64,000 nucleotides of DNA from Raillietiella orientalis (Eukaryota): the NCBI GenBank assembly GCA_036172245.1, contig JAYWIR010000040.1, forward strand, positions 248,001 to 312,000, read 5' to 3'. The notes beneath the pieces are model-generated. The model was given only the letters and a program-made list of their open reading frames with translations. It ran no database searches and had not been told where the DNA came from. This document shows, in pieces, positions 33,006-64,000 of this stretch (positions within the stretch are counted from its first letter, which is position 1; each line of letters begins with the position of its first letter). The position numbers and the translations under genes were made by a program.

Positions 33006-34352
33006 GGCCTTGGGGGCGGCCGGCTGCAACGAGGCAGCGAGTTCCTCCGCGGCGCGCTCGAAGGCGACGTCATCGAGCCTACGCTCGATGACAAACGCCG
33101 CCGCCTCGCTCCCCTCCTCGTTGACTTTGTCAATGGAGGGTTGAGCAGGGGCAGCAGCGAGTTCTTTAGCGCCGCATTCGTCGATGGCGAAAATCCGCTC
33201 TACGACGACGCAGCAGCTTTTTGTTTTTTGGCGGCGCGGAGCGGTTTCGCTCCGTTTCGCGATTTTTTGTGCCTGTATGGCACTTTTCTTTTTAGAGTTG
33301 ACCTCCTACCAACCAGACTCTTGGCTGACGTCCTCAACCTCTTCGACGTTTTTAGCCGTGGTCTCGGGGCTGGCCTTCGCCTCGGTGGCGGAGGTTATCT
33401 CTTAAGCTGCAGCTCGCGTTGCCAGCTTCTTTCTTTTCTTCGCCGCGCGCTTCCTTGGGTGTTTTGCGGACACGACGCGGACTGAGTTTTGGGGGCACAC
33501 CAGACGGGTGTGCCCAGCTTGTTGGCACTGCTGGCACTGCACGCTCGGACACCTCATTTTAAGGTGACCAAAGCTGCTGCAGCAGCCGCAGAACTTGTGT
33601 TTCCCCACGTACCAAACGTCAACGGATTCACTGTTGACGGTGAGTTTGTGGGGAAACTCACACCCTTCGCGAACCGTCACTCGCGCTGCACCCAGGCCGC
33701 AAAGCACCCCGTCGTAATCAACAAAAGTAGTAGGCTTTCCCCACAGCGCGTGGACAGTTGCAAATTTTTCTAGTTCGTTCCGGACGGTTTTTTTCGTCAT
33801 CCGGAACGTAATACCGGTCAGGTGAATGATCACCGACCGGTCTTCTGTAATTGGGAGAAGCTCTGGCTGCCCATAATTACCGGGGTTCGCAAAAGTCTCT
33901 GCGCAAGAGTTGCCTCCTTGCAGATAACTTCCACAAATTGACCCCCGATTCTGACGGACATAGCCAGAAGCTCCTCCTTTTGTACGCTGAGAACGCGTAT
34001 CGCCTGCAAGAAGGCGCGCGCGTTCACGGGAGAATGTAGACCGCCTACCTTGTATAGGAGGGGTGGGTTATACCCCTCTTCCAGGTAGGCGCGCATCTCC
34101 GCCGTAACCGCTGGCGTAGGTGCCGCAGCCACGGCGTTCCAAGTCCTGGGTAGGGCCGGGCGCGCATCCGTGCTGGCGGGAGCGCCCACTGATGCGTAAG
34201 CCCCCACCTCCATTCCCTCCGGGGGCAATGGGGTCATCGCCCCCGGATCCTCACCGGTGGTGGTATCAGGCATTGCTGCCTAATCCTCCACTCACACCAC
34301 CCAAAAGCACCAACGCAAACCAAACTCAGGGGCAGCGAAAAGACACGTCCAT
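33006..34352 (-). mobile_element. Family F, 5' part (5' UTR and ORF1 up to QPAAPKA)
   Basis: ORF1 MPDTTTGEDPGAM.. nearly the same as 37554-38820; 5' motif ggacgtgtctttt at ~34350-34338. Confidence 0.9.
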
Positions 34353-37300
34353 ACGACGCTCCAGAGTCTTCCGGATTGGGACCTATTTGAGGACTCGGTC
34401 CGGGAGTTCTGCGAGCAGTTTCCTATGGAACGTCTGCCCCGGGGATTTGGCGTACGGGCTTGGAACGAACGCGCGTATTTGCACGCGCGTCGTCACGAGA
34501 GGAATCCCAATGTCCGTCGCCTGTCCGAATACCGCGCCGGAGCCGAGCGGCAAACCTGGCAATCCGGGTCAGCGAGCATGCTGGATGACTTGGCCGGGAA
34601 CGTTCGTCCCCGACTGCGGTACGGAATCTCGTGCGGTGTTTTTATTCCTCCCTATACGCCAAAACACCACCCGAACAAGACGCCTCAAGGCGATTGCTCA
34701 TGAGTAGTTCCGTAGCAATAGGGGAGGAGGAGAGAGAAAGCTTCGATGAGCATTTCACGACCGGTGAAATTCTCGCCAGTATCAAAAGGCTCAAGAGACG
34801 TAAGGCGCCAGGGGAGGACGGCTTGCCCGCGGAGTTCTTTCAGAGTTTCCCGGAAGAGCTGGCCTTCCTGGTGCTCGAGTTGAAAAGGCGAATCCGAGAC
34901 GAAGGCGATGTTCCCGCCTCGTTTCGGTCAGCCAGGGTGAGGCTCCTCCCGAAGGGAGGAGACCTCAGGAAACTTAGCAACTGGCGTCCGATGATGATTG
35001 TAAACACGGACGCCAAGTTGATCACCGGGCTGGGGGCGTCGCGATTAAGACAGGTGTCCAATTCCATAATTAGCCCGGAACAGACTTACGCTGTTCCCTT
35101 GCGAAGTATGGAGGACAACCTCTTCTTCGCGAGCACATGGATGCACGCGCAGCGGAGTAGGAAAGAAGGCAACGGGAAACTTTGCAACCCCACTTTGAGG
35201 CCGCCAGTGCGACAGGGTAGGGACACCCATGCGGGAAAATGGGGCCTTAGCGATCGCAGTCGACCCCCATAAGGCGTTCGACTGTGTTGACCAGGAACTC
35301 CTCTTGGAGCTCCTGGGCTGCATGGGCTTCCCACCCTCCTTGATTACCTACCTGCACTCTTGCTGGCGGAACGCGATAATCTCGATTACTTTCAGTGGTC
35401 AAAAGGTGTATGGCGTGCCAATGCGGCGGGGCATAATGCAGTGCAACAGCCTGATCCCCCTGCTCTTTAGCATCTACGCTGAGTTGGTGCTGAGAGCGTA
35501 CAGGGTGACTTGTGCCCCCTTGCCGAGCTCGTGCCCCGGAATGCACGCCGTAGCGGCGTATGCCGACGATCTTCTGCTCCTCTTACGTATGTCCACCCCG
35601 GCGAAGGCGGTTGGAGATTTCTTCGACATGCTTAGCCGTGGGGCCGGATTATAGGTTAACAGGGCGAAATCGTTGGTGGTGCCAGTTGTAGCGGCGTGGA
35701 AAGGGCAGCAGGACTGGGTCCGTCTGGGGATCCCAACAGTGAGGTGCATCAAGTACCTTGGTGTGCCGTTGGGGGACTTCTTCCCTGCGGAAGCGTGCTT
35801 GAGCTGCCTCCAAAAAGTCAAGACTGAAATCGGTCCCTTCCTGGAAGGCAAGTTTTACTTGCCGGAACGGGCCGCGGTTTGGAACGCCTTCGCGGCCCCC
35901 ATCCTCTGCCCCTTGCTATTTGTTTGCCCCGCCCCCGTGGAATCTAACAACCGGACGAAGGACCTCCTCCGCATAGCCCTTTGGGGCAAGGGGAGGCCCC
36001 GAGTCCCTCTGAAGGACTTGTGCGCTCCGCGTCGTGACGGCGGTCTCAGCCTTTTGACGCTGGAGCGCGTGGAATTCCAGCTGCGATTGCGAACCCTCGC
36101 CATCGCAGCGAAGATGTGGAGCACCTCTTGGTGCATTCTAGCCCGCCTCCTGGCCAGGAGTGTGTCCCGATGCGAAGGACTCGCGTCTTTCCTTCTGTGC
36201 CCCGGCCGGAAGTTCAGGAGATGCGGCCTTCTCCTTGGACGCTTGGAAGCCCTGGTGAGGGAAAACGGCTGGACGATATGCAGCCCCGCCAAGTCCTCCG
36301 CCTGGCTGGAGGAATCCGTTGCGGCGTGGGCCAAGCTGAACAACCCAGGTTCTGAAAATTGGAACCGCTTGCGATTGGGCACCAACGCTTGCTGCACCCT
36401 ACGGCGCACTCTGGAGTGTCCCGCCAGAAGCACGTGGGCGGAGACCACCCCTTTAGCTTCGACGCTGCCCTTCCTACGTAGGGCACTGACCAGCGGCCGG
36501 ACGCCAGAGTGGCAAGTCTACTGCCGAATCGCAGGAAAGGAAAAAAAGATGATCGGCTGGACCTTGGGAGAACTGGCAGACGCCACGACCCCTAGTGCCC
36601 TTCCGCGTGGACTTCTGAGATGGGGCGAGCTGCTCGGCATCCCGAAGGATGACCTGAAGTGGCCCCAAGTTCTTATCGGATCCAGGCTTCTTCCGTTAAA
36701 GTGGCAAGAGACGGCGCTGCTGCTGTCGCACTAAGGTCTACCCTGCAACGCGTGCCGCTTCTACTGGACGCGGGGAAGTGTAAGGTCTGAGTGTACCCGG
36801 TGTGGGGAGCGGAAATCGCTCCCCCACCTTACAGTTGACTGTGTTGCCCTCCGACTTCTATGGAAACGGTTTCGGGTGACCCTCGGGCTCCCGATGGGCA
36901 GCGCACCCAGAGACGTTTTTCAGCCCCTCTTCGTGCGGGACGCCCTGCATCCCGCCGCAGCTCTCGCAGCCTTCTGCTGCATCCGAGGCATCGTGGTGGC
37001 CTGGAGCGATGCCTGCGTCGGAGGAGTGGATGCCAACGAGAGGGAAGTCATCCCGTATGCTGTGAGCTTTATGCGAAGAGCTGTGAGATGGCCCCACCTG
37101 GGACAAATACAGAAGGACCTAGAGGGCATCCTGCGAAGCATATGCCCTCCTCCTAGTGGATAGTGATCCCTTCTTCCTCCAAACTCTTTTTGTTTTTTCC
37201 TTCATTTTATTTTCTGGTTGTTTTTCTCCCCCATCCCCCTCCACTGCCGGGGAGCGTCACGGCGGGCTGCGTCCCGGCGTCCCGGCAGGTCCGGTGTTGT

Positions 37301-37373: not shown

Positions 37374-37472
37374 ACACCAAATTCCCGGGGCGGGCGGTGC
37401 ACGGGGAACTCCTCGCACAACTCCCGCACCGAGACTTTCATGCGGTCCCAGTCATGGAGATTCCGGAGCGTC
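37374..37472 (-). mobile_element. ~100-bp remnant of family G ORF2 linker (continuation of 43007-45611)
   Basis: TLRNLHDWDRMKVSVRELCEEFPVHR..FG; shares the target duplication with 43007. Confidence 0.8.
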
Positions 37473-37553
37473 GAGCGGACCTGTCTTTTCGTTGCTCCTG
37501 AGTTCCATTTCCGTTGGTGCTTGTGCGTGGTGTGGGTGGAGGATTAGGCAGAA

Positions 37554-39212
37554 ATGCCTAATACCACCAACGGTGAGGATCCGGGGGCGATGACCTCATT
37601 GCCCCCGGAGCAGATGGAGGTGGGAGCTCCCGCATCAGTGGAGGCTCCCGCCAGCACGGATGCGCCCCCGGCCCTACCCAGGGCTTGGAACGCCGTGGCT
37701 GCGGCACCTACGCCAGCGGCTATGGCGGAAATGCGCGCTTACCTGGAGGAGGGGTATAACCCACCCCTTCTATATAAGGTAGGCGGTCTATATTCTCCCG
37801 AGAACGCGCGCGCCTTCTCACAGGCGATGCGCGTTCTCGGCGTACAGAAAGAGGAGCTTCTGGCTATGTCCGTCAGAAGCGGGGGTCAATTTGTGGAAGT
37901 TATCTGCAAGGAGGCAACTCTTGCGCAGAGACTTCTGCGAACCCCCGTAAGTATGGGCAGCCGGAGGCTTCTCCCAATAACAGAAGACCGGTCGGTGATC
38001 ATTCACCTGACCGGTATCACGTTCCGGATGACGAAGGAGGCCGTCCGGAACAAATTGGAAAAATTCGCAACTGTCCACGCGCTGTGGGGCAAGCCTACTC
38101 CTTTTGTCGATTACGACGGGTTGCTTGGCGGTTTGGGTGCAGCGCGAGTGACGGTTCGCGAGGGATGTGAGATTCCCCACAAACTCACCGTCAACGGTGA
38201 ATCCGTTGACGTGTGGTACGTGGGGAAACCCAAGTTTTGCGGCTGCTGCCGCAGCTTTGGTCACCTTAAAATGAGGTGTCCGAGCGTGCAGTGCCAGCAA
38301 TGCAAACAAGCGGGGCACACCCGTCTGGTGTGCCCCCAAAACACAGTCCGCGTCGTGTCCGCGAAAAACGCGAGAAAGCGCGCGGCAAAAAAGAGAAAGA
38401 AGCTGGCAGCTCGTGCTGCTGCTAAGGAGGTCACCTCCGCCACCAAGGCGAAGGCCAGCCCCGAGACTTCGGCGAAAGACGCCGAAAAGGTCGAGGGCGA
38501 GGGTCAAGAGCCAGGGTGGCAGAAGGTCGACCCCAAGAAAAACTCCCATAAGAAGGGAAAGAACGTGGCGAAACGGAGCGAAACCGCTCTGCGCCGCGAT
38601 AAAATTAAAAGCTGCTGCGTCGTTGTAGAGCGGATTCCCGCCATCGACGAATGCGGCGCTAAAGAACTCGCTGCTGCCCCTGCTCAACCCTCCGTTGACA
38701 AAGTCAACAAGGAGAAGAGCGAGTCGGCGGCGTCCGTCATCGAGCCCACGCTCGATGACGTCGCCTTCGAGCGCGCCGCGGAGGAGCTGGCTGCCTCGTT
38801 CCAGCCGGTTGCCCCCAAGGCTGGCAAGAAGGCCGTCAGGCGTCCGGCTTCCCCTCAGGAGTCGGCCACTTCCGACCCCGAGGTGAAGGCCGGAAACACA
38901 GCATCCATCTTTGCGGCACCCCGCAAAAAGGCAGGACGAAAGTCCACAATGCCCCGGAAGATCGTCTCCCCCGACGAAGGGGAAGAGATGGCTTCCGGTA
39001 GCGAGGGTGCCATGAGCGTGGGAAACTCCCGGGACCCGTCGCCCGAGAGAATTCCACGCTCGGACACGGAGGGGATGGTGAGGATGGAGGCCGAACAGGT
39101 ACCCCAGGCGCCTGAAGAGGCCTCCGTCCTCGTTCCGATGGTCCTCGTACCGATGGACCTTTCGCACACCTGCCCCGCGGCAGGTGCCGCGACGCCACTT
39201 TCCCAGCCATAA
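37554..39212 (+). CDS. Family F ORF1 protein (552 aa, nucleic-acid binding, 2x CCHC zinc knuckle)
   Basis: Uninterrupted ORF; CGCCRSFGHLKMRC and CQQCKQAGHTRLVC; stop overlaps the ORF2 ATG. Confidence 0.88.
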   Translation: MPNTTNGEDPGAMTSLPPEQMEVGAPASVEAPASTDAPPALPRAWNAVAAAPTPAAMAEMRAYLEEGYNPPLLYKVGGLYSPENARAFSQAMRVLGVQKEELLAMSVRSGGQFVEVICKEATLAQRLLRTPVSMGSRRLLPITEDRSVIIHLTGITFRMTKEAVRNKLEKFATVHALWGKPTPFVDYDGLLGGLGAARVTVREGCEIPHKLTVNGESVDVWYVGKPKFCGCCRSFGHLKMRCPSVQCQQCKQAGHTRLVCPQNTVRVVSAKNARKRAAKKRKKLAARAAAKEVTSATKAKASPETSAKDAEKVEGEGQEPGWQKVDPKKNSHKKGKNVAKRSETALRRDKIKSCCVVVERIPAIDECGAKELAAAPAQPSVDKVNKEKSESAASVIEPTLDDVAFERAAEELAASFQPVAPKAGKKAVRRPASPQESATSDPEVKAGNTASIFAAPRKKAGRKSTMPRKIVSPDEGEEMASGSEGAMSVGNSRDPSPERIPRSDTEGMVRMEAEQVPQAPEEASVLVPMVLVPMDLSHTCPAAGAATPLSQP

Positions 39213-42200
39213 TGCCGGGAATCGCCTCTCGCCGTCGTCTTCTGATCGCCTGTTGGAACGTGAACGGGCTAAGCGACGACGGCAAGAGGCGTGACGTGGC
39301 CGCCACCCTGGCATCCTTCGACCTGGTGCTGCTGCAGGAGATCCACGTGATCTCCGCAGATCAAGCCCGGGAGATCGAACGGATCTCGCGTGGGCGGCTG
39401 TTGTGGCGTTGCGGCACCGCGAAATCAAGCGGTGTCGTCTTCCTGCTTCGGCCAGCCATCGAGACCGCAATAAAGGACGTTCGGTTCGATGACGCAGGTC
39501 GCGTCGGTCAGCTGACTCTCAGCTGGTCCGACTCTATCGACCTGGTCGTCACCAACCTATACGCTCCTAGCGGAAATAACGCGTTGAAGGCGAAGGCAAG
39601 AAGGGAATTCTACCTTGCCCTGAGACGCGATTGGCTGACCGATGCAGGAGTTCGCAAAGCGCACCTGATCGCAGGTGATTTCAACCTGCGCCTGCTTTCA
39701 GGTGCGCCGGATACGCTGAACGACCGCGTCAACGAGTTGTGCGCAGAAATGAACACGCGCAACTTGTTGGCAGGGGACACGGCCATGGAAAGCAGCATCG
39801 ATCACGTGTACCTTGATCAGCACCTATGCTCTCGGGTGGGCAGGCGCGGCAAGGTACCACCCGAGCTGTCGGACCATGGTCGGATCATGTTCGAAGTGCG
39901 TCCGCGCGACAAGGGCCCCCCCTCGTCAGCGTGGCGTCTGCCAGGGGACTGGCTGAAGTTTCCCGACGCGGCGGAGCACCTCCGCGCGTTTATTCGGAGC
40001 TTCAGGATGCAGACACTTCAGGACTGGGACCGCTTCAAGCGGTCGGTCCAGGAGTTCTGCGATCAGTTCCCCCTGCATCGCCTACCTGCGGGTTTTGGGG
40101 AGGGGCCGCGTAACGACAGGTGCTATCTTCAGGCCCGACGTTACGCGAGAACCCCCGACATGCGCAGGTTAGCAGAGTACCGAGCGGGAGCCGAGAGGCA
40201 AGCCTGGCAATCCGGATCGGCCAGCTTGCTGGACGACCAGGGCCGGGAGCACTCGGTTCCCGCTCAGAAACGCGGGATAGTAAGAAAATTTTACTCCTCC
40301 CTGTACGCCAGGGCGCCTCCGGAGCGAGACGTCTCACGAATTCTGCTTCCGGAAGGTGCTCCAGCGATCGGGGAGGAGGAGAAAAGAAGCCTCGACGAGC
40401 CTTTCACGATGGACGAGATCCTCTCGGCCATCGGAAAGCTCAAGAGGCGGAAGGCTCCAGGGGAGGACGGCCTGCCCGCGGAGTTTTACCAAACTTTCGC
40501 GGCTGAGCTTACTCCCCTGGTACATCAGCTCACCTTGCTGATCCGTGAAACAGGTGACGTACCCACCTCGTTTCGTTCAGCAAAGGTGCGGCTCCTCCCG
40601 AAGGGAGGAGACCTAAGGAGCATGAACAACTGGCGTCCCATCACAATAGTGAATGCGGACGCCAAGTTGATAGCCAAGATGTGGGCAAAGCGCCTGGGAC
40701 GGGTCGCCAACATCTTCATCAGCGCGGAACAGACTTATGCTGTTCCCGGGAAGGAGCATGGAGGCGAACCTGTTCCACGCTTCCACATGGTTAGAGCTCC
40801 AACAAGGAAGGGGCTTATTGAGCAGCCGGAATTCCGGTGCGTCCGTTGGCGGGAGACGGAACGGTTGGGTGGGGAAGGGAGCCCTTGCGGTCGCTGTCGA
40901 CTTGCGTAAAGCATTCGACAGCGTCGACCAGAATCTCCTGCTGGAGCTTCTGGAACGCGTGGGCTTCCCGGCCTCTTTGTTGGCCTACCTGCGCTCCAGC
41001 TGGCGCGACGCGCTCATTAATGTTCTTTTCAGCGGGCAAACCGTGCACGGAGTACCGGTGCGACGCGGCATACGGCAGGGAGACAGCCTGAGCCCCCTGC
41101 TCTTTAGCGCGTTTTTCGAATTGGTGCTGAGAGCGTACAGGGAGACTCTTGCGCACCTGCCGTGCGATTGCCCCGGTACGCCTGCGGTTTCGGCGTACGC
41201 GGACGATCTTCTGCTGCTGCTGCCTATGTCCACCCCGGCCTCGGCGGTCGAGGACTTCTTCGACCTGCTGAGTCGTGGAACAGGACTGACGGTGAACAGG
41301 GCGAAGTCGTCCGTAATGCCAGTCGGAGCGGCGTGGGCAGGGCAGCAGGACTGGGTCCGTTTGGGGATCCCCACGGTGAGGTACTTCAAGTACCTTGGTG
41401 TGCCGTTGGGGGACTACTCCCCTGCGGAAGCGTGGTCCGGCTGCCTTCAGAAGGCTCAGGCGGCGATCGGCCCGTTCCAGGACGGCAGGTTCTACCTACA
41501 GGAACGGGCCGCGGCGTGGAACGCGTTTGCGGCCCCCCTCCTTCGCTCCTTGCTTTTTGTTTGCCCCCCCTCAGCGGAGTCAAAGAAGAGGACGAAGGAC
41601 CTCCTGAGGATCGCCCTTTGGGGCAGAGGGAGGCCCCGAGTCCGTCTTTCGGACTTGTGCGCTGCTCGTCGGGATGGTGGTCTGGGCCTCCTGACGTTGG
41701 AGCGGCTGGAGCTACAGCTCCAGTTCCGAGTTGTTGCCTTTATGGCAGGAAATTGGTGCACCCCTTGGTGCTTCCCTGCACGTCTCCTCGTCGAGCGGGC
41801 CACCGGCAATGCGGGACTCTCGTCCTACTTTGCACTCCGAAGCCCCATCTGCCACTGCGGACTTCAACTTCGGAGGGCGGCCAAGCTCGTGAAGAACAAC
41901 TCGGCGCGGATCCTCGTACGCCCCGCGAACGGTCCTGCCTGGTTGCAGGAAACCGTCCGCACGTGGGCGATGATTCAGGAGCAGAGCCCGCAACACGAGC
42001 GAATAGCTCTGTTCGGGCCGCATGCCCGCCACACGCTCCGAGAAATCATCGAGAATCCCCGAAGGAGAGCGTGGGCACAAAGAACCTCCCTTGCTGCGGT
42101 ACTGCCTACCCTACGGGAACATCTGGGCAGCGACGTCGCGGCACAATGGGAGGTAACTGTGAAGATCGCCAGCAGGGCAAAGAAGATCGGGGATTGGAGA

Positions 42201-42794
42201 ACGGGTCAGCTCACCAACGCTGCGACCCCGAGGACCACCCCAAATGGACTTTTGCGCTGAAGAGAGCTACTGGATGTTCCAGAGGAACATCTCGAGTGGC
42301 CTCCGGTGCTCATGGACTCGCGCACCCTCCCCATGAAGTGGCAACAGTCGGCACTGATGGTGTTGCATTGGGGGCTTCCTTGCAACGCCCGCCGACACCA
42401 CTGGACGCGGGGGGGTGTCAACCCTAATTGTGTCAGGTGCGGGGAGAAGGAATACCTCCCCCACCTGTTAGTGGATTGTGTTGCCCTCCATCCCTTGTGG
42501 GAACGCTTTGCCGCAGCCCTGGGGATCCCCGGAGGCAACCCCAGAGACGCTTTGCGCCCCCTCTTCGTCCGTGACGCCCTGCCTCCAGCGGCCTCGCTTG
42601 CAGCCCTGTGCTGCCTACGCGGGATCATCGTGGCATGGAGCAAAGCGACGGGAGGATCCAGCGACAGGGATGCCAACGTGTATGCTGCCCGTTTCCTCAG
42701 GATGGCGACGCGATGGCCCCATCTGGAACCACACAAGCAGAAACAGCTTGCCGGCATCCTCCAGAGGATGACGGACCCTCCCAGCAGACTGTGA
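39212..42794 (+). pseudogene. Family F ORF2 (APE-RT-CCHC, ~1190 aa), one frameshift near 40750 and one stop at 42258-42260
   Basis: ORF pieces 39212-40909, 40737-42260 and 42306-42794 carry all motifs in order. Confidence 0.9.
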
Positions 42795-43006
42795 TCCCTT
42801 CCCGCTCCCTCCCTGATTTTTGTTTATTTTTTGTTTTCTTTTTGTTTCGTTCCCCCTCCCCTCTGCTGCCGAGGTCGACCGCGCAGGTCTGCGCACCGGT
42901 AGCCCGGCAGGCTATATCTTTCCAGGGCGTGGCTGGACTACTGGCCCAGTCACAGATTGTATAAGTTTATTCGTTAGAATAAACGTCCCGGCGCACCCGG
43001 GTTTCA

Positions 43007-45611
43007 ATGGAGATTCCGGAGCATGACGCCTCCCAGTACTTGGCTGAGATGTTCCGCCGCACCTGAGATGCGCGTTTAGTCCCCGGGGAGACGCCATGCC
43101 CTGGATGGTGGTCCTTTGTCGCAAGGCATAACCTCGAATATCAACCGGAAGTGGTCCGATAGCGTCGACGGAAGTTTCCCTCGTCTGCCGACCAGTGGGC
43201 ACAGGTCGGCGTCAAGGAAGACGTGGTCTACTCTTTGGACCATTCCCAGTAGGTCCCCCAACAAGTTGCGCGTGCGCATAGCAGCGCACAGCTCATTGGC
43301 TGCGTCTTTTTGCCCGCAAGGCACACCTGAGAGCAGGCGGATGTTGAAATCCCCACCGATCAGATGCACTTTGCATACGTTTGTATCCGCCAGCCAGTCG
43401 CGTTTAAGGTTTGCGAGGAACCGGGAACGTTCCCCGTACCCGCATCCTCCGCTCGGAGCGTACACATTGGTCACGACAAGGTCGATCGAGTCGGGCCACC
43501 TAAGGATGAGCTGGCCAACCCGACTGTGGTTGTCGATGCGTACGTCCTTGACGAAGGCGGCGACTGCTGGCTTCATAAAAAAGGCGACGCCACAGGTGTT
43601 GCGAGCGCCGCATTGCCAAAACAGACGACCCCCTGCGATCCTCTAGATCTCCTGGGCGTTCTCCGCGGTGATCACGTGGATCTCCTGCAGGAGCGCCAGG
43701 TCGAAGTCGCGCAGGGTGTCGGCCGTATCCCGCCTGTTGCCGTCGTCGCGCAGCCCGTTGACGTTCCAGCAGGCTACGCGGATCCTACGGCGACAGGCGA
43801 GCCCAGGTGTTAATCCTGGGTAAGTGGCAATGGGACTCCCGCCACATTGTCGGACTGGACGCTAGGAGAAGGGGGTGCGTCGCGCACCGCTTCTCCCTCC
43901 TCCACGGGGGCCGAGTCTTCGTCAGGGCGTGCAGAGGAAGGGGGGTTTCACCCACCTGTACTTCCTCCTCCATGGGAGTCGCCAGCTGCAAGGTGTCGGG
44001 GAATGAGATATTCCCACCCTCGCCTCCCACGCTGCCAACTTCCCCCTCGGGGGCCGATTCATCCTCCTCCTTATTGATCCGGATGCGTTTCCTGGGATTC
44101 TGCGACTTGCTTCCCGTCTTCTTTGGTGGCGCCTCCGTTGAGGAGGAAGCACTTCCGGCATCCGGTTCGGCCTCACCTGCATCCGGAGCCTTCCTCGCGG
44201 GCGGCCTTCGTAAGCCTTTCCGGGAGTTCTTTTCACGGCCTTGCAGTTCAGCCGTGAGTTCTTCCACCGCCTGCTGGAAGGCGGCCTCCTCGATCGCGTC
44301 GAGCGCAGCGCGCGGTTCCCCCTGTTTCCCCAGAGGGTTCGCCATCGACCGTCGCGGCTTCGGCGGACGCGAGGGGTGGATTGCTCCCCCGGCGGCGGCA
44401 CCGGGTGCCTCCACACGTTCTAATTTTACCGAACACGCGCGGAGCTTTTCGCGGCACGGTTTTTCGCTCTGCGTTTTTGTTTTCACCGAGTTTCGTTCGG
44501 GACTCCCGGGTTTTCTTCGTGGCTGTACCGTCTGCCAGCCTTCGCCGTCACCAGCATCGTCGGGAGTGTTCTCAACCGACGTTTGCTGTGAGGGCTTAGG
44601 GACTGGCATCTGGGTGTTTACAGCCTGTTTCTGTTTATGCGTCTCTCCCGTGCGTTTCCCCTTTGCCTTTTTTGCAGCGGATGGGGGCGGGATTTCTCTT
44701 CTTGGGCACACCTTACGGATGTGGCCCTTATTTCCACATAAGTGGCATTGGATGTTAGGGCACCGCTTTTTTAGATGTAGCATCGCAATGGCCACAATAC
44801 TTGGGCTTACCCACGTACCAAACATCGACTTTTTCTTCGCCGATATTCAGTTTGTGGGGAAGCCAACCATTCTCTGGTAGGGTGACGCGGGCTGCGGCCA
44901 TCCCACTGAATAGCCTTCCGTAAGTTCGGAAGACATTGGATTTGGCCCAATACGCGTGCACACTACTATGCTTCGACAACTCCTCATGGACGCTGGTTTT
45001 GTCCATTCGGAGTGATACACCTGTGAGGTGGACCACGACGGAGCGGTCCTCCGTCACAGGGAAGATCCTGCGGCCGTCCACCGTAATAGGGGTGTTCAGC
45101 AGTCGCTGCACCAGACTTGCCTCTTTGCATGTCAGCTCAACTCGCTGGCCCCCACTAAGGACGGATAGGCCTAAAAGGTCTTCCTCCCTCACGTTAAACC
45201 TTTGCAGCTCCATTTCGAAGGAGCGTGCAATTTTTTCATCAAACACACTGCCTACCTTATAGATCAGAGACATCTTGTAGCCGCTGTCCTTGTAGGCAGT
45301 CTGCTCCGCTACTGCATCCGGAGATGGTGCAGCAACGACGTCACTCCAACTCCTCGCCAATGGCGAAGAGGGTCGCGAAGGGGCGGTTGCCCCCGATTCC
45401 GATGGGGCAGGTGCCCCGGATTCCGTGAGGGCGGATGCCCCCACTTTCATTGGTGGAGGAGAGCATGTCGCTTCTCCTCCTCCAACTTCCATCGCGGTGT
45501 CCTCAGGCATTTCTGCCATGGGACACCGGTGCTCCCACACACCAGACAACCAACGAAAAGCTTCCCACTAACCAGTCCGTGGAGCGATGCCAAACCACGT
45601 CCGCTCCCTAG
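43007..45611 (-). mobile_element. Family G (C-related), 5' part: 5' UTR, frameshifted ORF1, endonuclease
   Basis: ggacgtggttt at ~45602-45592; MAEMPEDTAMEV; CHLCGNKGHIRKVC; CWNVNG, GDFN, SDH. Confidence 0.9.
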
Positions 45612-52094: not shown

Positions 52095-52704
52095 TTGTGC
52101 GAGGTGTGGAGCCCTAATTGTGCGAGTTGTGGAGAACGGTATTCCCCTCCTTTTGCATTTTGTGGCTCTTCGGCACCCTTGGAACCGTTTTGCCGCGTCA
52201 ATTCGTATCCCCTGTGGCAACCCCAGAGACGGAGTTAGATCTCTCTTCTTTTTCGACGCCCTTCGGCCTTCGACCTCGTTTGCAGCCCTGGACTGCTTTC
52301 GCGGGATAGTCGCTGCATGAAGCAAGACAACGGGAGAACCACGCGATAAAGTTGCCGTCCAGTGCGCAGCCAAATTTAGGGAGACGGCGACAGGATGGAC
52401 CCATCTGAATTCAACAATCCAAAAACAGCTTGCCGGCATCCTGCAAAGGATGAAACGGCCCCACAGCAGACTCTGATCCCTTCCCGAGCTCCCCAGATCT
52501 TTTTTTTATATATTTCTCATTTTTCGTTTTATGTTTTTGTTTTGTCCTTGCCCCCTCTGCTGTCGTGGTGGACCGTACCGGAATACGAACCGGTGACCCG
52601 GCAGGCTTAATTTTGTGTACCAGTGCGTGGCCGGACCACCAGGTCAGCCACCAACGCTTGTTTTATTCGAAAGAATAAACGCCCCGGCGCAACCGGGTGA
52701 AAAA
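52095..52704 (+). mobile_element. 3' terminal fragment with F/D-like 3' UTR
   Basis: PNCASCGER..; AATAAA+hairpin 52674-52699. Confidence 0.85.
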
Positions 52705-54202: not shown

Positions 54203-57200
54203 ATTGCATTTTATAGCGACATGATCGCCAAGATGAAGATGAAGGAGGGAGCTGTTATACCTGGGTTGGCGTTCATTGACGAACAATCCCAGGGAGTGAA
54301 CGTGCGCTACCAATAACAGCCGGTATTCTGCACCGGGTGCAAGCAGTTCGACCACAGGGCGGGCACTTGCCCAACATGCCGTTGCTTCCGCTGCGGCAAA
54401 GAAGGACATCAAGTCCGAAACTGCCCGCAACCGAAGTTGGCTCCTCCTGCAAGAAGCACAGACATGCTAAATGGAGCTGTCCGGAATTCGCCAATTGCAG
54501 AAGGATTCGAGGACTCTCCCGTGACAGAAACATCAAGGCGGCCGAACAGCCTCAGAAGTTGGCAGCAAGTCCGAACAAGGTGAAGGAAGCCGTCCATGTA
54601 TCGACGGACGGCTTCATTGAGGTAGGAACGAAAGGAAATAGGAGGATGCTCGTCAACGAGAAAGAAACCCCTCTTATTCTAGAAGGAGCAGCGCAGGAAG
54701 GCGTAAAGATGGAGGTAGCGCAGGAACGTGCGAAAGAAGGAAACCAGGAAGCCACTCCAGTGTCGCAGGAGGACCTGCAGTCCACGGAGGAGTTGGCAAC
54801 ACTAGCGGAGGAAGTTAAGGAGGTGCAAAGCGGGCCTCAGCAAGAGAAAATCTTGAGAACATCTGCAATGCACACGAGAAGGTGAACCGGGTTGTGGAGG
54901 TCACCGGCGCGAGACCTTAGAAGAACAGCTTCTCGACGTAAAGGCGAACTTCTGCGCAAAGGTCGAGATAGAGGCGCTATCTCGAAAATTGATCGGGCGG
55001 GCCGAACACTTTACGGAGGAGGCGGAAGTAACCGACCTCACCGGAACGGAGAGTGACGCCGGCAGCGAGAAGCCCGCTGCTTCTTCATCGTCTGGAAGAG
55101 CACGCTCTTTCAGACAGAAGAAGCTCAGGAAGGCCAGGAAATAGGTCTTCCCCTTTTATGGCCTCTTGCCTATCGACCGCCAAGAGGCTGAACATCGCCT
55201 CCTGGAATGTAAACGGTGTGGTCGACCAGGGAAAAAGAAAAAGGATTGTGCGGACCATCGCACAACAAGACCCACAAGATGGATCTCGAGATTAGTCAGC
55301 GAATGGAACGGCGATTCAACGGGCAGATGTTCGTCAGCGAGGGAGAACGGAACACGCAGGGTGTGGCGGTCCTAATGAAGAAACACTTTGCCACCACTAT
55401 TCTGGAAGTGTTCTGTCCCCAACCCGGACGAATCATCCGCGTGCGACTGGCCTGGTCCGCGACTGTTCCCCTTATCCTGGTGAACGTGTACGGGCCCCAC
55501 AGGCTAAAACATCGTTGTGCGGAGGCGCTGCATGCAGCACTCCGTGAAAAGGTCGCCCCCAAGGACGTCGTGATTGTTGCTGGCGATCTCAACATATTGG
55601 ATGAGATCACTCATTCCCAAGAAGCCAGAGGAAGGACGGCGTATCGGCGGCTATCCGACGAGTTCGGACTGGTGTGGCGGACAGCAAGTCGCAAGCTGAT
55701 CGATCACGTACTCCACAGCACCGAACTAGGGAATCGCATTCAGGGTTTTCGAGACACATTGACCACTCTGTCCGATCGCCCGTTGATGCGGTTTTCCCTA
55801 AGAACGGAAAATCCTCGGCGGAGGCAAGGCACCAGGGCGGCGCTCATCAGCATGCCCGCCTGGTTCGAGACACATCCTGGACATCAGCAGGTCCTGGAGA
55901 CGATTCTGAAGACCACAAAAAATCATAAGAGTCACCGACTGGGACAGCTTGAAACACAGGATACACCTGTTTGCAAATATGCAATTCGGGGATAGGCACT
56001 TGAGGCAGGAGGCGAACCGGGAGCTGAACATCCAAGATCCCTCACTCTTAAAGTACTTCGAACAGTACGAGAGTCGGTACGTATTCAACAACATAAAAGA
56101 GGAACTCGGCGTGCTGGAGAAGAGAAATCTGGCAACAGATATCTTCTGCATCCAGTACGACGGTCAAGAGCGACAGTCGTCCGAAGATATAGTGGAAGCC
56201 TTTCACAGGCATCACATGAAACACTTCAGGCGACAACATCTCTGTCGCTCTAGTCAACAAGCCCTTCTGAGCTATCTCCAGAACAGGACCGACGATCTCC
56301 AACGAAACAGACTGGAGGAGGAGTTCTCCGAAGATGAGGTGAAGACTGCGTTTGGTCAACTACGCAAGGATGTGGCAGCGGGCCCTGACAGTGTACCCAT
56401 CACGCACTATCAGCGGTACCTGCATGCCTACCTGCGTTTGTTCCACCAGTTGAACCTCTGCATCCGCGAAGAAGGAAGCCTTCCACAGTCCTTCTACGAG
56501 AGTCGGATGAGATTGTTGCCAAAAGGAGGCGACCTCACGCAGGTCGCTCAATGGAGGCCAATCTCGATCCTGAACTCAGACGACAAGTGGTTGGCGAAGA
56601 TCTGAATCCAACCGCTTAGGCAAAGGTCATGTCGAGGCTCATCTCTCCGGTCCAAACGTGTGCAGTCCCTGGACGTCACATGTCGGACAATGTCAAGTGT
56701 GCCCAGGCCACCGTCGGACTCAGCCGATACGTCGGCGAGAACCTGGCGCTGGTGTTCACTGACATGGAGAATGCTTTCGACTCCATAGACCATGGGATGC
56801 TGCTGAAGGTTCTGGAGAAGCTAGGCCTTCCGGAACACTTCAGCAACTTCGTGGGGGTGGTACTCCAGAACTAGTACTGCCGAATCAAAATCTACGGCCA
56901 GGAGACGGCAGCAATCCGGATGGAATTCGGAGTCCGGCAGGGCGATTCGCGAAGTCCGATGCTGTTCGTCATCTACATGGAGGCGTTGTCGTCCTTTATC
57001 GAGAAGAGCGAACGACTGCAAGGCATAACGATCGATGGCCAGCGTCTTACCCATCTGGCATACGCAGATGATCTACTCTTCTTTATCAAGGGAGAGAGAA
57101 ATCAACGAGCGTTTCTGGATGTGGTAGACCTGATGGATCAAGGCCTCGCTCTAAAGATCAACGCCCAGAAAAGCCAGCTCTTGCCCGTTGGAATCCTCGA

Positions 57201-58792
57201 TCTCTCCGCTCTAGCGGAAAGAGGATTCCGAACGGTGGACAAGGCCAAGTACCTGGGTGTCTACATTGGCGACGTCTCCGCGTCGAAGCTATTGTGGACC
57301 GAGATCCTAGGGAAAACGGCCAAGGAAGCAGCCAAGTACACCCGAACGGACCTTGGAATGAAGCGAAAGGCCAACATATGGAACGGAGTACTCCTTCCAA
57401 AAGTGCTCTTCGGGGCGGCCTTCGCGAGGATGAACAAGGAAACCACGAGGGAGTTCGACAAGCTGCAGAGAAAAACACTGTGGGGCCACTATCGCCCAAG
57501 AGTCCGACTAAAACCCCTGTGTCGTCCCAAGGAAGAAGGCGGTTCCGGGATGAAGTCGCTTGCACATTCCATGGAAATCATGGATACGCGACACATCCTG
57601 GACATTGCCACTTACTGGGATGACTGGCCGTATGCGGCGCACAGGGCCTACGCGTTGTTGCTTAACAACTCGAAAGGCCTGATGACTGCGCTGCTAGGCA
57701 TAGCAGGCAAATGAAACAAAATCGACCCCACCTGGACGAGGAAGCAACGGCTGGTGCGGAAGCACCAAATCAAGATCGTGCCGCGAAGCAGGGAACTCTG
57801 GCAGGACGAGTCCATCCTGGTGATCCCTTGGTTGCTTCCTGTCCCGCCGGACACGAGAAGCTGGATCTACCAGCGATCCAGAGTTACCCTACTGCAAATC
57901 CAGGAGTGGAGGCGAGGAGGCTACCTAAATCAAACACGTATACTTCGGTATACAGAGATGATATTAGGAAGGTTTACCCACAGGACCTGCGAAGTGTGGT
58001 TCAACCACAACGACTTCGCATGGTCGAGGGTAACCAGAACAAACCTCCGAAGGCTTATCCAAGAAAACGACCGTGACACCAGTGCCCTCCAGGAAGCCAC
58101 CGAACGCTACGGGAGTGAACGGTTCAACCTGTTAGCGATCGGCACGACGCTCTGGAGGAGTGACCTTCAACCGGGCACCCAGGATGACCTCCTGATGTTT
58201 TATCACGGAGGAATCCAGAGTGGGTCCCGATTGCAGCACATCACAGGAAGACGGGAAGACCGAGACTGCGCAGCATGTGGAGACGACGACACGAGACTTC
58301 ACGTCTTGACGTGTCCACACTCCTGCATGACTAGCTGATCCTGAAAAGGATCATAGGACTTACCAAGAAGTCCGTTATGAAGATCCTCGCCGGGATGTTT
58401 CATGGGGATGGTAATGTTCCCTGTTACAATCCCATGGTGAGGACGACCATAGCCCTCTTCATCAACGCCATACTTGTGCGATGGTGAAAAATGAGGAAAG
58501 CCAGGAGAGTCGCACCACCGATGGAGATCCAACAAGGGTTCTTGAAGAGGGAAATCGGCATCACGAACTGCGGGAAGATCCACGCCTGGACGTACCGATT
58601 CATCCTGAAGAGGATTTAGGACGACGCCCGGGACCATCCAGCTGGAAGTCCCCCCTGAAAAGCAGAGCTCTAGTGCAACCCCAGGACCCCCAAGTGCAAA
58701 AGGTTTGTATTGAGTGAATGAGAGTGCGAATGTAAATTTTGTATTTTTGTAGAAAAATAAACTTACCCCACCCCTTGTGGGACTTGGAGAAA
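54203..58792 (+). mobile_element. Family B (more divergent L1/Tx1-like), 5'-truncated decayed copy with 3' terminus
   Basis: ORF1 knuckles, ASWNVNG, NVYGP, GDLN, AFDSIDH, RQGD, YADD, CAAC..HVLTC; AATAAA 58756-58761. Confidence 0.92.
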
Positions 58793-58976
58793 CCTGCCGA
58801 GTCGGTGAACTTGCTTCGCGGCTCCAAGTATTGTGCGCTCGACAACATAATCTGTTAAATTGTGCTCGTGTGTGCCCGAAGAGGGAAGTTTTCCAGACGA
58901 AACTACAAAAGAAGCGGCGAGGAGACCGCGGCAAAAGACCTGGCAGTGGTCCCGTGCAGCAAGACCAGCTGCCAGG

Positions 58977-60764
58977 ATGCAGGCACATGGAGGAGGAGTG
59001 GAGAGACCGTCGTCCCCCATGGAAGCCAGGGAGGTAACGTGCGGCAACGGCGAGGCGGTGGCAGGCATGCCAAGGATCGCGCCCGCGGCGGGCTTTGCTG
59101 CGCCGGCGGCGGCGATGCCAAGGGTCGTGCCCGCGGCGACGACGGCGGAGGTCGTGCCCGCGGCGGCGACGCCGAGGATCGTGCCCGCGGCGGGGAAGGT
59201 CGCGATTGCGGCAGCGATGCCGAGTGTGCCGCCTGCGGCGGCAACGGTGGCGACGTCGAGGGTTGCGCTCGCGGCGGCGGCGTCCCAGGCAGGACCCGCG
59301 GGCGTCGACGCGGTTCAGGGCGAGACGCCATCTTGTTCGGCTGCGGCGGCGCAGCCCTTTTGCTATGCGTCGGTGGCGGCTGGACAAGCGAGTGTCCACA
59401 CACCAAGAAAATTCGGGAAGCCGCTATGCGGTAAAGTCCATAAGGTCGATCGGCCGATCGTGGAGTTAGGGCCCAATGTGAAGCCCATCATTTTTAAGAC
59501 TGGGCTGATCACGTTCAGTAATACCAGGGAGGTGTATCTGTCCCTCGATAAGACGGATATCAATTTTGATCGCATACAGGCGATCATACCGGCAAATAAC
59601 GGGTTCACAGTCTTCACAGACTGTGAAAATATTAGAGAGCGATTGATCCTGAAGGGGATCAATATACAAGGGAGGATGGTTTGTGGTATTGGCGAAATGC
59701 CATACACAACCGTCTTTCTGAACGGCATCTCCATCCTCACACCGCAACTAACGGAGTGGAACTTTTTGGAGCAGTATGGGGAAGTTCTGGACCTTGAATT
59801 CCATAACTTCTCTGGAAATATATTTTCTGGCGACATGATCGCCAAAATAAAGTTGAAAGAGGGAGCTGTGATCCCTGGATTAGCCGTTCTTGACGAACAA
59901 TCTCAGCGAGTGAACGTGCATTACCGGCAACAGCCGATATTCTGCACCAGGTGCAAGCAGTTCGGCCACAGGGCCGGCGCTTGCCCAACGTGTCGTTGTT
60001 TCCGCTGCGGCAAAGTTGGACATCAAGTTCGAAACTGCCCGCAGCCGGAGGTGTGCTCCTTCTGCAAGAAACACAGACATGCCAAATGGAGCTGTCCGGA
60101 GTTTGCAAACTGCAGAAGGATTCGAGGTCTCTCTCCCGTGAGAGAGAGAAACACCAAGGAGGCGGAACAGCCTCAGAAGGCAGGAAGGCCGAAGAAGGTG
60201 AAAGAAGCCGTCCCGGTATCGGAAGACGGCTTCATACAGGTAGGGAAGAAAGGAAAGAGAAGGATGCTCGTCAAGGAGCAAGAAACCCCTCTTATCCTGG
60301 AAGGTGAAGAGCAAGTAGGCGAGAAGATGGAGGTAGCGCAGGAAGGCGCGGAAGAAGAAAAAGCCGAAGCCACTCCGGCGTCGCAGGAGGCCCTGCAATC
60401 TACGGAGGAGTTGGCATCACTAGCTAATGAAGTCTTAGAGGTGCAGAGCGGTCCCCAGCAAGAGAAAATCTTGCAGAAAAGCTGCAATGCACAGGAGAAG
60501 GTCAACCAGGTTGTGGAGGTCACCGAGCGCGAAAAGCTAGAGGAACAGCTTCTCGACGTAAAGGCGAACTTCTGCGCCAAGGTCCAGATAGAGACGCTAT
60601 CTCGAAAACTGATCGAGCGGGCCGAACACTCGACGGAGGAGGCGGACGTAACCGACCTCACCGGAACAGAGAGTGACGCCGGCAGCGAGAAGCCCGCTGC
60701 TTCTTCATTGTCTGGAAGAGCACGCTCTCTCAGACAGAAGAAGCTCAGGAAGGCCAAAAAATAG
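58977..60764 (+). CDS. Family B ORF1 protein (Ala-rich N-terminal repeats, 3x CCHC zinc knuckle, Glu-rich tail); start codon uncertain
   Basis: CTRCKQFGHRAGAC, CFRCGKVGHQVRNC, CSFCKKHRHAKWSC in an open frame 58860-60764; first ATG at 58977. Confidence 0.8.
   Translation: MQAHGGGVERPSSPMEAREVTCGNGEAVAGMPRIAPAAGFAAPAAAMPRVVPAATTAEVVPAAATPRIVPAAGKVAIAAAMPSVPPAAATVATSRVALAAAASQAGPAGVDAVQGETPSCSAAAAQPFCYASVAAGQASVHTPRKFGKPLCGKVHKVDRPIVELGPNVKPIIFKTGLITFSNTREVYLSLDKTDINFDRIQAIIPANNGFTVFTDCENIRERLILKGINIQGRMVCGIGEMPYTTVFLNGISILTPQLTEWNFLEQYGEVLDLEFHNFSGNIFSGDMIAKIKLKEGAVIPGLAVLDEQSQRVNVHYRQQPIFCTRCKQFGHRAGACPTCRCFRCGKVGHQVRNCPQPEVCSFCKKHRHAKWSCPEFANCRRIRGLSPVRERNTKEAEQPQKAGRPKKVKEAVPVSEDGFIQVGKKGKRRMLVKEQETPLILEGEEQVGEKMEVAQEGAEEEKAEATPASQEALQSTEELASLANEVLEVQSGPQQEKILQKSCNAQEKVNQVVEVTEREKLEEQLLDVKANFCAKVQIETLSRKLIERAEHSTEEADVTDLTGTESDAGSEKPAASSLSGRARSLRQKKLRKAKK
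59060..59250 (+). repeat. Degenerate GC-rich ~27-bp repeats encoding (M/T)PR(V/I)VPAA
   Basis: tcg(t/c)gcccgcggcg recurs four times. Confidence 0.75.
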
Positions 60765-60777
60765 GTCTTCCCCTTTT

Positions 60778-63700
60778 ATGGACTCTTCCCTATCGACCGC
60801 CAGGAGGATAAACATCGCCTCCTGGAACGTAAACGGTGTGGTCGACCAGGGAAAAAGAAGAAGGATTGTGCGGACCATCGCACAACAAGACATCGTGTGC
60901 CTGCAGGAGACCCACAGGATGGGTCTCGAGATAAGCCAGCGAATAGAACAGCGATTCAACGGGCAGATGTTCGTCAACGAAGGAGAACGGAACACGAAGG
61001 GTGTGGCGGTGCTAATAAAGAACAACTTAGCCCCCACTATTCTGGAAGTGTTCTGTCCCCAACCCGGACGAATCATCGGCGTGCGACTGGCCTGGTCCGC
61101 GACTGTTCACCTTATCCTGGTAAACGTGTACGGGCCGCACAGGCTAAAACATCGTTGTGCGGAGGCGCCGCATGCAACACTCCGGCAAAAGGTCGCCCCT
61201 AAGGACGTCGTGATTGTTGCTGGCGATCTCAACATCTTGGATGAGATCATTCATTCGGAAGACGCCAGAGGAAGGACGGCGTATCGACGGCTATCCGAGG
61301 AGTTCGGACTGGTCTGCGAACAGCAAGCCACAAGCCATTCGATCACGTCCTGCACAGCACCGAACTTAGGAACCGTATCCAGGGGTTTCGCGACACTATG
61401 ACTACGGTGTCCGATCACCCCCTGGTGCGGTTTTCCCTAAGAACGGAGAATCCTCGGCGGAGGCAAGGCACCAGGGCAGCGCTCATCAGCATGCCCGCCT
61501 GGTTCGAAACCCATCCCGGACATCAGGCTGTCCTGGAGGCGATTCTGAGGGCAACAACAATCCGAAGAGTCGCCGACTGAGACAGCCTGAAACACAGGAT
61601 ACACCTGTTTGCAAACATGCAGTTCGGGGATAGGCGCTTGAGGCAAGAGGCGTACCGGGAGCTGAACATCCAAGATCGCTCCCTCTCAAAGTACTTCGAT
61701 CAGTACGAGAGTCGGTACGTCCTCAATAACATAAAAGGGGAAGTCGGCGTGCTTGAGAAGAGAAATCTGGAAACAGATATCTTCTGCATCCAGTACGACG
61801 GCCAAAAGCGACAGTCGTCTGAGGACATCGTGGATGCCTTTCACAGGCATTACACAAAACACTTCAGGCGACAACAGCTGTGTCGCTCTAGTCAACAGGC
61901 CTTCTTGAGCTATCTCGAGAAGAGGACCGACGACCTCCAGCGGAACAGACTGGAGGAGGAGTTCTCCGAAGAAGAGGTGAAGACTGCGTTTGGGCAACTA
62001 CGCAAGGACGTGGCAGCGGGCCCTGACAGTGTACCCATCTCTCACTATCAGCGGTACTTGCATGCCTACCTGCGTTTGTTCCACCAGTTGACCCTCTGCA
62101 TCCGTGAAGAAGGAAGACTTCCACAGTCCTTCTACGAGAGTCGGATGAGATTGTTGCCAAAAGGAGGCGACCTCACGCAGGTCGCTCAATGGAGGCCAAT
62201 CTCGATCCTGAACTCGGATGCCAAGTGGTTGGCGAAGATCTGGTCCAACCGCTTAGGCAAGGTCATGTCGAGGCTCATCTCTCCGGTCCAAACGTGTGCA
62301 GTCCCTGGACGTCACATGTCGGACAATGTCAAGTGTGCCCAGGCCACCGTCGGACTCAGCCAATACGTCGGCGAGAATCTGGCGCTGGTGTTCACTGACA
62401 TGGAGAAGGCTTTCGACTCCATCGACCATAAGATGCTGCTGATGGTTCTGGAAAAGCTCGGACTTACGGAACACTTCAGCAACTTCGTGAGAATGGTACT
62501 CCAGAACCAGTACTGTTGAATCAAAATCAAAGGCCAGGAGGCGGCAGCAATCCGGATGGAACGGGGAGTCCGGCAGGGCGATTCGTTTAGTCCTATGCTG
62601 TTCGTCATCTACATGGAGGCGTTGTGGTCCTTTATCGAGAAGAGCGGACGACTGCAAGGCATAACAATAGATGGCCAGCGTCTTACTTATCTGGCATACG
62701 CTGATGATCTACTCTTCTTTATCAAGGGAGAGAGAAATCAACGAGCGTTTCTTTATGTGGTAGACCTGATGGATCAAGGCCTCGGTCTAAAGAGCAACGC
62801 CCATAAAAGCCAGCTCTTGCCCGTTGGAATCCTCGATCTCTCCACTCTAGCAAGGAGAGGATTCCGAACGGTGGACAAGGCCAAGTACCTGGGTGTCTAC
62901 ATTGGCGACGTCTCCGCGTCGAAGCTATTGTGGACCGAGATCCTAGGGAAAACGCCCAAGGAAGCAGCCAAGTACACCCGAACGGACCTTGGAATGAAGC
63001 GAAAGGCCAACATATGGAACGAAGTACTCCTTCCAAAAGTGCTCTTCGGGGCGGCCTTCGCGAGGATAAACAAGGACACTACTAGGGAGTTCGACAAGCT
63101 GCAAAGAAAAACACTCTGGGGCCACTATCGCCCAAGAGTAAGACTGAAACCCCTGTGTCGTCCCAGGGAAGAAGGCGGTTCCGGGATGAAGTCGCTTGCA
63201 CACTCCATAGAAATCATGGATACGCGACACATCCTGGACATTGCCACTCACTGGGATGACTGGCCGTATGCGGCGCACAGGGCCTACGCGTTGTTGCTTA
63301 ACAACTCGAAAGGCCTTATGACTGCGCTGCTAGGCCGAGCAGGCAAATGGAACAAAATCGACCCCACCTGGACGAGGAAGCAACGGCTGGTGCGGAAGCA
63401 CCAAATCAAGATCGTGCCGCGAAGCAGGGAACTCTGGCAGGACGAGTCCATCCTGGTGATCCCTTGGTTGCTTCCTGTCCCGCCGGACACGAGAAGCTGG
63501 ATCTACCAGCGGTCCAGTGTTACCCTACTACAAATCCAGGAGTGGAGGCGAGGAGGCTACCTACATCAAACACGTATACTTCGGTATACAGAGATGATGT
63601 TAGGAAGGTTTACCCACAGGACCCGCGAAGTGTGGTTCAACCACAACGACTTCGCATGGTCGAGGGTAACCAGAACAAACCTCCAAAGGCTTATCAAAGA

Positions 63701-64000
63701 AAACGACCGTGACACCAGTGCCCTCCAGGAAGCCACCGAACGCTACGGGAGTGAACGGTTCAACCTGTTAGCGATCGGCACGACGCTCTGGAGGAGTGAC
63801 CTTCCGCCGGGCACCCAGGATGACCTCCTCATGTTTGATCACGGAGGAATCCAGAGTGGGTCCCGATTGCAGCACTTCACAGGAAGACGGGAAGACCGAG
63901 ACTGCGCAGCATGTGGAGACGACGACACGAGACTTCACGTCTTGACGTGTCCCACACTGCTGCATGACTGGCTGATCCTGAAAAGGATCATAGGACTTAC
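60778..64000 (+). pseudogene. Family B ORF2 (APE-RT), disrupted
   Basis: ASWNVNG, CLQETH, DMEKAFD, YADD; frameshift near 61330, stops near 61578 and 62517. Confidence 0.88.

Follow-up and report, generated by a model that had tools for sequence, protein, structure and literature searches.

Why does a seemingly complete retrotransposon interrupt the ORF2 of another retrotransposon exactly between its endonuclease and reverse-transcriptase (RT) parts, and does this position reflect a choice of target? The question arises in a 64,000-nucleotide stretch of DNA (contig C40, positions 248001–312000; hereafter "the window") from a eukaryotic assembly of 210 Mb in 491 contigs, which was surveyed alongside. 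Self-alignment and Pfam searches showed the window to be a pile of related elements encoding an APE endonuclease and an RT. A preliminary description of this DNA had proposed that one of them, of "family F", is present at full length, and this proved correct: the locus holds a 5.5-kb element with two ORFs, flanked by an exact direct repeat (Table 1). Very likely, family F is a sequence-specific LINE of the L1/Tx1 group that targets the ORF2 of several sister LINE families at a site within the endonuclease–RT linker.

Table 1 Coordinates of the family F element and related features (positions in the window)
Feature	Position	Strand	Remarks
Empty target site	9084–9097	+	in an intact member of the host family most often used by F
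F sister subfamily, 5′ part	33007–34358	-	88%; inserted in family H, homologous site
Host family G ORF2, short part	37374–37468	-	downstream of the F insertion; cut again by a family H 3′ end
Left target-site duplication	37455–37468	+	14 bp; antisense to the host ORF2 linker codons
Full-length family F non-LTR retrotransposon	37469–43007	+	5539 bp
ORF1 of F	37554–39212	+	552 aa; open
ORF1 stop/ORF2 start overlap	39210–39214	+	TAATG
ORF2 of F	39212–42794	+	APE endonuclease (PF03372), RT (PF00078, YADD), C-terminal CCHC
Homologue of the target site within F	40007–40020	+	8/14 bases as in the target, by eye
3′ terminus of F	42965–43007	+	two predicted hairpins, no poly(A) tail
Right target-site duplication	43008–43021	+	14 bp
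Host family G ORF2, endonuclease part	43008–43807	-	upstream of the insertion
Family E 3′ end	52106–52703	+	about 70–75% identical to F; inserted in family A, homologous site

ORF1 of F gave no Pfam match at E ≤ 0.01, and two CCHC knuckle-like motifs were spotted in it by eye. ORF2 has two breaks: a frameshift at 40751 and a stop codon at 42258–42260. One of the two hairpins at the 3′ terminus contains AATAAA and the other lies at 42987–43001 (predicted fold z −3.66); the RNA structure predicted for the 5′ end is no better than that of shuffles (z 0.40), and the 3′ fold of the related family E is weak (z −1.38). Self-BLAST detected no long terminal repeats in F. With an APE domain followed by an RT in ORF2, a C-terminal zinc motif, a separate ORF1 and a 14-bp target-site duplication (TSD) without LTRs, the element has the makeup of an APE-type non-LTR retrotransposon. 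Elements of this type usually end in a 3′ poly(A) or simple-repeat tail; F, instead, has a precise end after a hairpin. The catalytic motifs of its endonuclease align with those of the L1 endonuclease, and among solved structures its ORF2 is nearer to human L1 ORF2 (E 6e-32), the closest overall, than to R2. Protein searches retrieved no close named relative, the nearest named proteins being unclassified fish and turtle ORFs (34–37% identity) and fish and plant ORFs (25–29%). Judged by its sequence, F is an APE-type non-LTR retrotransposon of the L1/Tx1 group.

The exact direct repeat that flanks F is a 16-mer (37454–37469 and 43007–43022), for which a search tolerating up to three mismatches returned four matches (shuffles: mean 0.66, with 0/100 reaching four). 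It had been taken as a 16-bp TSD, a claim that did not survive a comparison of full-span pairs. The base preceding the right TSD copy is A, and the base following the left copy is C, in 21/21 such pairs, the window included. Of the 19 host-flanked pairs, 18 have C or T in front of the left copy—only the window departs from this—and in two pairs (L077 and L083) a host G follows the right copy; in L083, moreover, a host-specific variant is duplicated on both sides of F. Since the A and C at the margins of the 16-mer belong to F as its own ends, the true TSD is 14 bp and the element runs from 37469 to 43007. The proposal that the terminal motifs mark true element ends is supported as well. To match at two additional bases, the window requires host variants seldom seen in family G: A was found in one of the 34 empty G-type sites and C in none of them, and one empty site with C emerged from a separate empty-site search. 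We read the two extra matches as chance, added to by the selection of this repeat in the preliminary description, although local homogenization may also account for them. The two halves of the family G host, on the minus strand, join in frame across the repeat, with F inserted in antisense. The reported split of ORF2 at LRNLH/DW thus stands except for the H, which owes its existence at the 3′ junction to F's last base, given that the outer bases of the 16-mer belong to F.

Two other junctions in the window had been listed as parallels, and both needed correction in detail. The second F 5′ end, placed at about 34352 in family H, does occupy the homologous site; however, it lies at 34358 (minus strand) and belongs to a sister subfamily 88% identical to F. 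It adjoins the 14-bp equivalent at 34359–34372 in the same register as F, and no matching 3′ end was found within the window. Likewise, the 3′ end assigned to 52704 does occupy the homologous position in family A as stated, but without the supposed offset of 1–2 nt, ending at 52703 in F's codon register. This end belongs to family E, for which 3′ ends at 18 of 20 loci adjoin the homologous site in A-type hosts in that same register (the remaining two are tandem). The family E duplication measures ~5 bp at four full-span loci and two tandems, being exact in one of the four pairs and affected by substitutions or an indel in the other three. The junctions indicate that family E probably shares F's nick register, yet duplicates ~5 bp where F duplicates 14 bp.

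To what extent is the linker site recurrent? In a genome-wide pattern census, 90/90 F 5′ ends adjoined the linker site or its variants, and so did all 30 of the 5′ loci that were read out individually. At the other end, 69 of 84 matches to the F 3′ motif genome-wide, and 46 of 47 matches to its exact 19-nt form, were on target, with the last letter of the 3′ pattern slightly biased towards on-target matches. The recurrent linker site is hence supported far more strongly than could be seen from the window, and the proposed check for a site preference in other F copies came out in its favor. For comparison, target-specific insertion into a repeat is defined for the Tx1 clade by >20% of flanks in the available text of PMC4494074; in F, the figure is 90/90 5′ ends. 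Twelve of the 15 off-target 3′ matches (15/84) were fetched, comprising one copy 96% identical to F, six older F-like copies (83–89%) and five members of other families. The older F-like copies are located outside nests and have only a few leading bases in common with the target. Given the 96% copy and these six, the specificity of F is not absolute, or was looser earlier.

F occupies this position, in antisense, in several host families. Hosts that are 20–30% apart are cut at the same base, and each host type carries its own variant of the TSD. About a quarter of the sites of the main host family are occupied (48 filled versus 134 empty) as opposed to 3/37 of the G-type sites; occupancy differs among hosts.

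F itself possesses a homologue of the target and is absent from it: 0/90 5′ ends lie there, versus 139 intact F-type sites genome-wide. A Fisher test of these own-type sites (0 versus 139) against the main host (48 filled, 134 empty) yields p 1e-13, a value that is only indicative because pattern sensitivities differ, the hosts are older than F and close F-like relatives are among the 139 sites. The best explanation, from the bases at issue, is that F's own linker may have diverged enough to be unused by F. The 36 5′-anchored F loci comprise 18 full-span copies, 11 interrupted at F position 1906, three at position 2631 and four elsewhere; no break occurs at the own linker among the 23 F copies that span it (0/23). 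The insert at position 1906 is family A in 11/11 cases, and the three inserts at position 2631 (L083, L133 and L134) carry a linker type that F itself targets, so that F and one host family target each other at sites ~90 bp apart. Tandem copies are a further feature: another F, separated by one repeat, precedes 11 of the 90 5′ ends, an arrangement to be expected should the 5′ junction rebuild the target. F copies are mostly full length and they are young, at 0.8–5% from the column majority. Tentatively, and as something a little short of probable, we picture a community of sister LINEs in which each endonuclease would recognize the ORF2 site of its rivals while its own site has diverged to escape. 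Such a community would combine self/non-self discrimination with reciprocal knock-out, and even the nick stagger would differ among its members (14 versus ~5 bp).

The same pattern could, in principle, stem from a few insertions that were spread among host copies by segmental duplication or by a homing-like gene conversion of DNA. We regard this as improbable, since the flanks diverge more than F does in 169 of 173 locus pairs (median 14.4% versus 4.5%) and remain more divergent within one host family (median 9.0 versus 4.2 for F), which indicates that the loci stem from independent insertions, not from joint duplication or conversion. No co-conversion gradient was seen: set against 20 empty sites, which were selected as exact matches and are therefore biased young, filled flanks did not gain in similarity towards the junction. 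The nearest neighbor of the filled flanks was an empty copy in 8/15 and 10/13 cases, and the common cut in hosts 20–30% apart, each with its own TSD variant, likewise speaks against shared spread. Yet duplication has contributed, in that flanks are as alike as F in eight of the 173 pairs and L016 and L017 are near-identical, meaning that some F loci are recent duplicates; once the eight suspect pairs are merged, the 26 non-tandem loci fall into 20 groups. Similarly, pairs with host on both sides have flanks from one host family in 10/11 cases, whereas the exception, the full-length L134/L046, has discordant flanks—~170 nt of main-host sequence beside the 3′ end and then its own host type. This patch may have arisen by conversion, from a read-through RNA or through chimeric assembly. 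Finally, 5′ ends are about as numerous as 3′ ends (90 versus 69–76), which is unusual for a truncation-prone process and would suit copying as DNA. With flank divergence above that of F and no gradient at the junction, spread by joint duplication or conversion is largely rejected.

Independent insertion might still owe its apparent precision to a short cleavage preference, chromatin targeting to LINE-rich blocks and selection against copies elsewhere, the lack of own-site insertions then being a matter of age and not of immunity. The older off-target copies outside nests, with their few shared leading bases, and the youth of F copies are what such an account would have us see. Selection, however, is not expected to favor one base in a dead host copy, and yet 90/90 5′ ends are found at it. 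Nor does age suffice, as F is old enough to have received 11 re-hits at its 5′ junction and, at a minimum of 14 of 36 loci, insertions of other families, with the own linker broken in none of the copies that span it; we accord this account little likelihood. Least probable by far is an assembly artefact behind the repeat and the placement of F. Although the region is dense in repeats, these junctions are found again on dozens of contigs, with differing host variants, the window copy is flanked by a single host family on its two sides, and an independent sequencing run (one study, contigs, 0.42 of words covered) contains the F family together with one empty-site contig.

If F is indeed a sequence-specific LINE, how might it integrate? 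The preliminary description considered the duplication its best direct evidence for target-primed reverse transcription (TPRT). Duplications of the 13–14-bp type combined with truncated 5′ ends are the usual marks of this process. Both marks are present in two of five off-target copies examined, relatives of F with duplications of 13–14 bp, and these, together with the APE and RT domains, support TPRT as the best reading of F integration; the TSD of F fits the process but does not prove it. By analogy with TPRT as established in the available text of PMC2881922, the APE endonuclease would nick the coding strand of the host, one base ahead of the conserved Asp-Trp codons, and the RT would copy the RNA from its precise, hairpin-marked and non-polyadenylated 3′ end; cleavage, priming and hairpin use by F are all transferred from that model. 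A loop of the L1 endonuclease has been linked to target choice (PMC1950540, in the text available), and where this loop lies, the families differ in a short segment preceding the IDH motif, which is only a candidate for such a role. A second nick 14 bp away would give rise to the 14-bp duplication. As F's first bases resemble the host continuation, the 5′ junction would rebuild the target and lead to tandem copies. Nested blocks of mutually disabling families would result because sister families insert at other fixed sites within F.

Known site-specific LINEs share some of these traits. SART1 and TRAS target telomere repeats. Unlike R1, SART1 and TRAS, with their rDNA or telomere-repeat targets, F targets the ORF2 of sister LINEs. 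Endonuclease-defined insertion at a single site is nonetheless common to F and these elements, R1Bm having rDNA as its target (available text of PMC1950540), and the F ORFs overlap stop-to-start as TAATG like those of SART1, going by the title of a reference. Tx1L of Xenopus and other Tx1-clade elements have a specific endonuclease and insert into transposons, namely Tx1D, Mariner-N4 and LTR retrotransposons, according to the accessible portions of PMC1950540 and PMC4494074. Like Tx1L, Tx1-Mar, Tx1-8_Crp and Tx1-4_AMi as portrayed there, F is APE-type, target-specific and inserted into other transposons. In contrast, the Tx1-type targets given in these portions are DNA transposons or LTR elements, while that of F is the ORF2 coding sequence of sister LINEs, entered in antisense; F also leaves its own homologous site unused and is targeted in return. 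We therefore liken F to Tx1 elements by targeting habit, by which clade membership is not established.

Zepp of Coccomyxa and ZeppL-1_cRei of Chlamydomonas are LINEs of the L1 type; they enter copies already present, which produces nested clusters (PMC3446292 and PMC8226300, available parts). F, too, occurs in nested clusters of LINE copies. From the same parts, however, Zepp targets its own copies, resulting in arrays of mostly truncated 3′ ends, whereas F avoids its own site and is mostly full length; and Zepp, in green algae, forms one cluster per chromosome, located at the centromere, whereas F forms several on one contig, in antisense within other families. Within a subset of the listed coordinates, four multi-point F clusters fall on contig C26 and two each on C5, C13 and C33. 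Zepp-like self-targeting was not seen, with 0/90 F ends at the own internal site and the tandems at a rebuilt host site. A search of the assembly for a chlorophyll a/b-binding gene (PF00504) gave no match, which does not prove absence; with several clusters per contig in addition, membership of F in green-algal Zepp is unsupported. A TTAGGG-type array was not found in the assembly, and the one short match retrieved says nothing for or against an association with telomeres.

As far as the available sources go, TE-targeting Tx1 elements and self-nesting Zepp are already known; what we measured here for F are the census, the TSD length, the self-avoidance and the reciprocity. Our literature search, which left most subscription papers and Repbase reports outside its range, retrieved no account of a LINE that targets the ORF2 of sister LINEs while sparing its own site. 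F offers a countable case in which retrotransposons land in one another's essential coding sequence, seemingly avoid themselves and are targeted in turn, which makes competition between transposon families testable. Related endonucleases with differing targets and staggers, moreover, constitute a natural series for what sets the specificity of an APE endonuclease. The same series bears on the placement of the second-strand nick, described as unclear in the available text of PMC2881922.

The weakest part of the preliminary description is the suggestion that the window copy, being only two lesions away from an intact element, could serve for revival. This copy is the least diverged of the 23 full-length F copies (0.83%), and both frame breaks were confirmed as present in the assembly and private to it. 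However, the count of two holds for frame breaks alone: the copy carries 27 further private amino-acid changes, which with the stop brings its private non-synonymous changes to 28, versus nine synonymous ones, a ratio as neutral decay predicts. Both ORFs are open in 0/23 full-length F copies, and three sister copies of F have a single frame break.

Genome-wide, the 3′ ends and 5′ ends of F, a LINE family of the L1/Tx1 group, were roughly equal in number, and at its 14-bp linker target in ORF2 of sister families few of its copies seem to be randomly truncated. Away from this target, older F-like copies were found mostly outside nests (loci L122–L126 and L131), with a match to the target limited to its leading bases. 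At L134/L046, the paired ends of one full-length F copy with discordant flanks, the recipient sequence adjoining the F 3′ end was replaced by ~170 nt from one host family.

F itself harbors an additional fixed site within its C-terminal region. The break points at this site lie 14 bp apart, which suggests a further 14-bp duplication. Of the other families, one had its antisense insertion point at the RT ‘KAFD’ motif, and elements of the C/H type apparently used two sites: one in ORF1, close to ‘PKAG’ and on the same strand, and the antisense ‘PxGFG’ site in ORF2.

Many families terminated in AATAAA plus a CCCGG/CCGGG stem, without poly(A); the loop of this stem differed by family. A tandem pair from a more distant LINE family, its members 91% alike, had a different base skew.

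Insertion sites, termini and other features, by position
Feature	Window	Other loci
F C-terminal-region site	42344–42358	L099, L100, L121, L139, L140
KAFD site	16245, 23700	L023
Apparent C/H-type element sites (PKAG/PxGFG)	5901, 12036, 22263, 32998	
AATAAA-stem termini	5295, 8725, 12036, 16216, 25793, 42978, 46204, 47214, 51386, 52674	
Host-derived replacement		L134/L046 (G000:C92:11400–11700, same assembly)
Distant tandem pair	54208–64000
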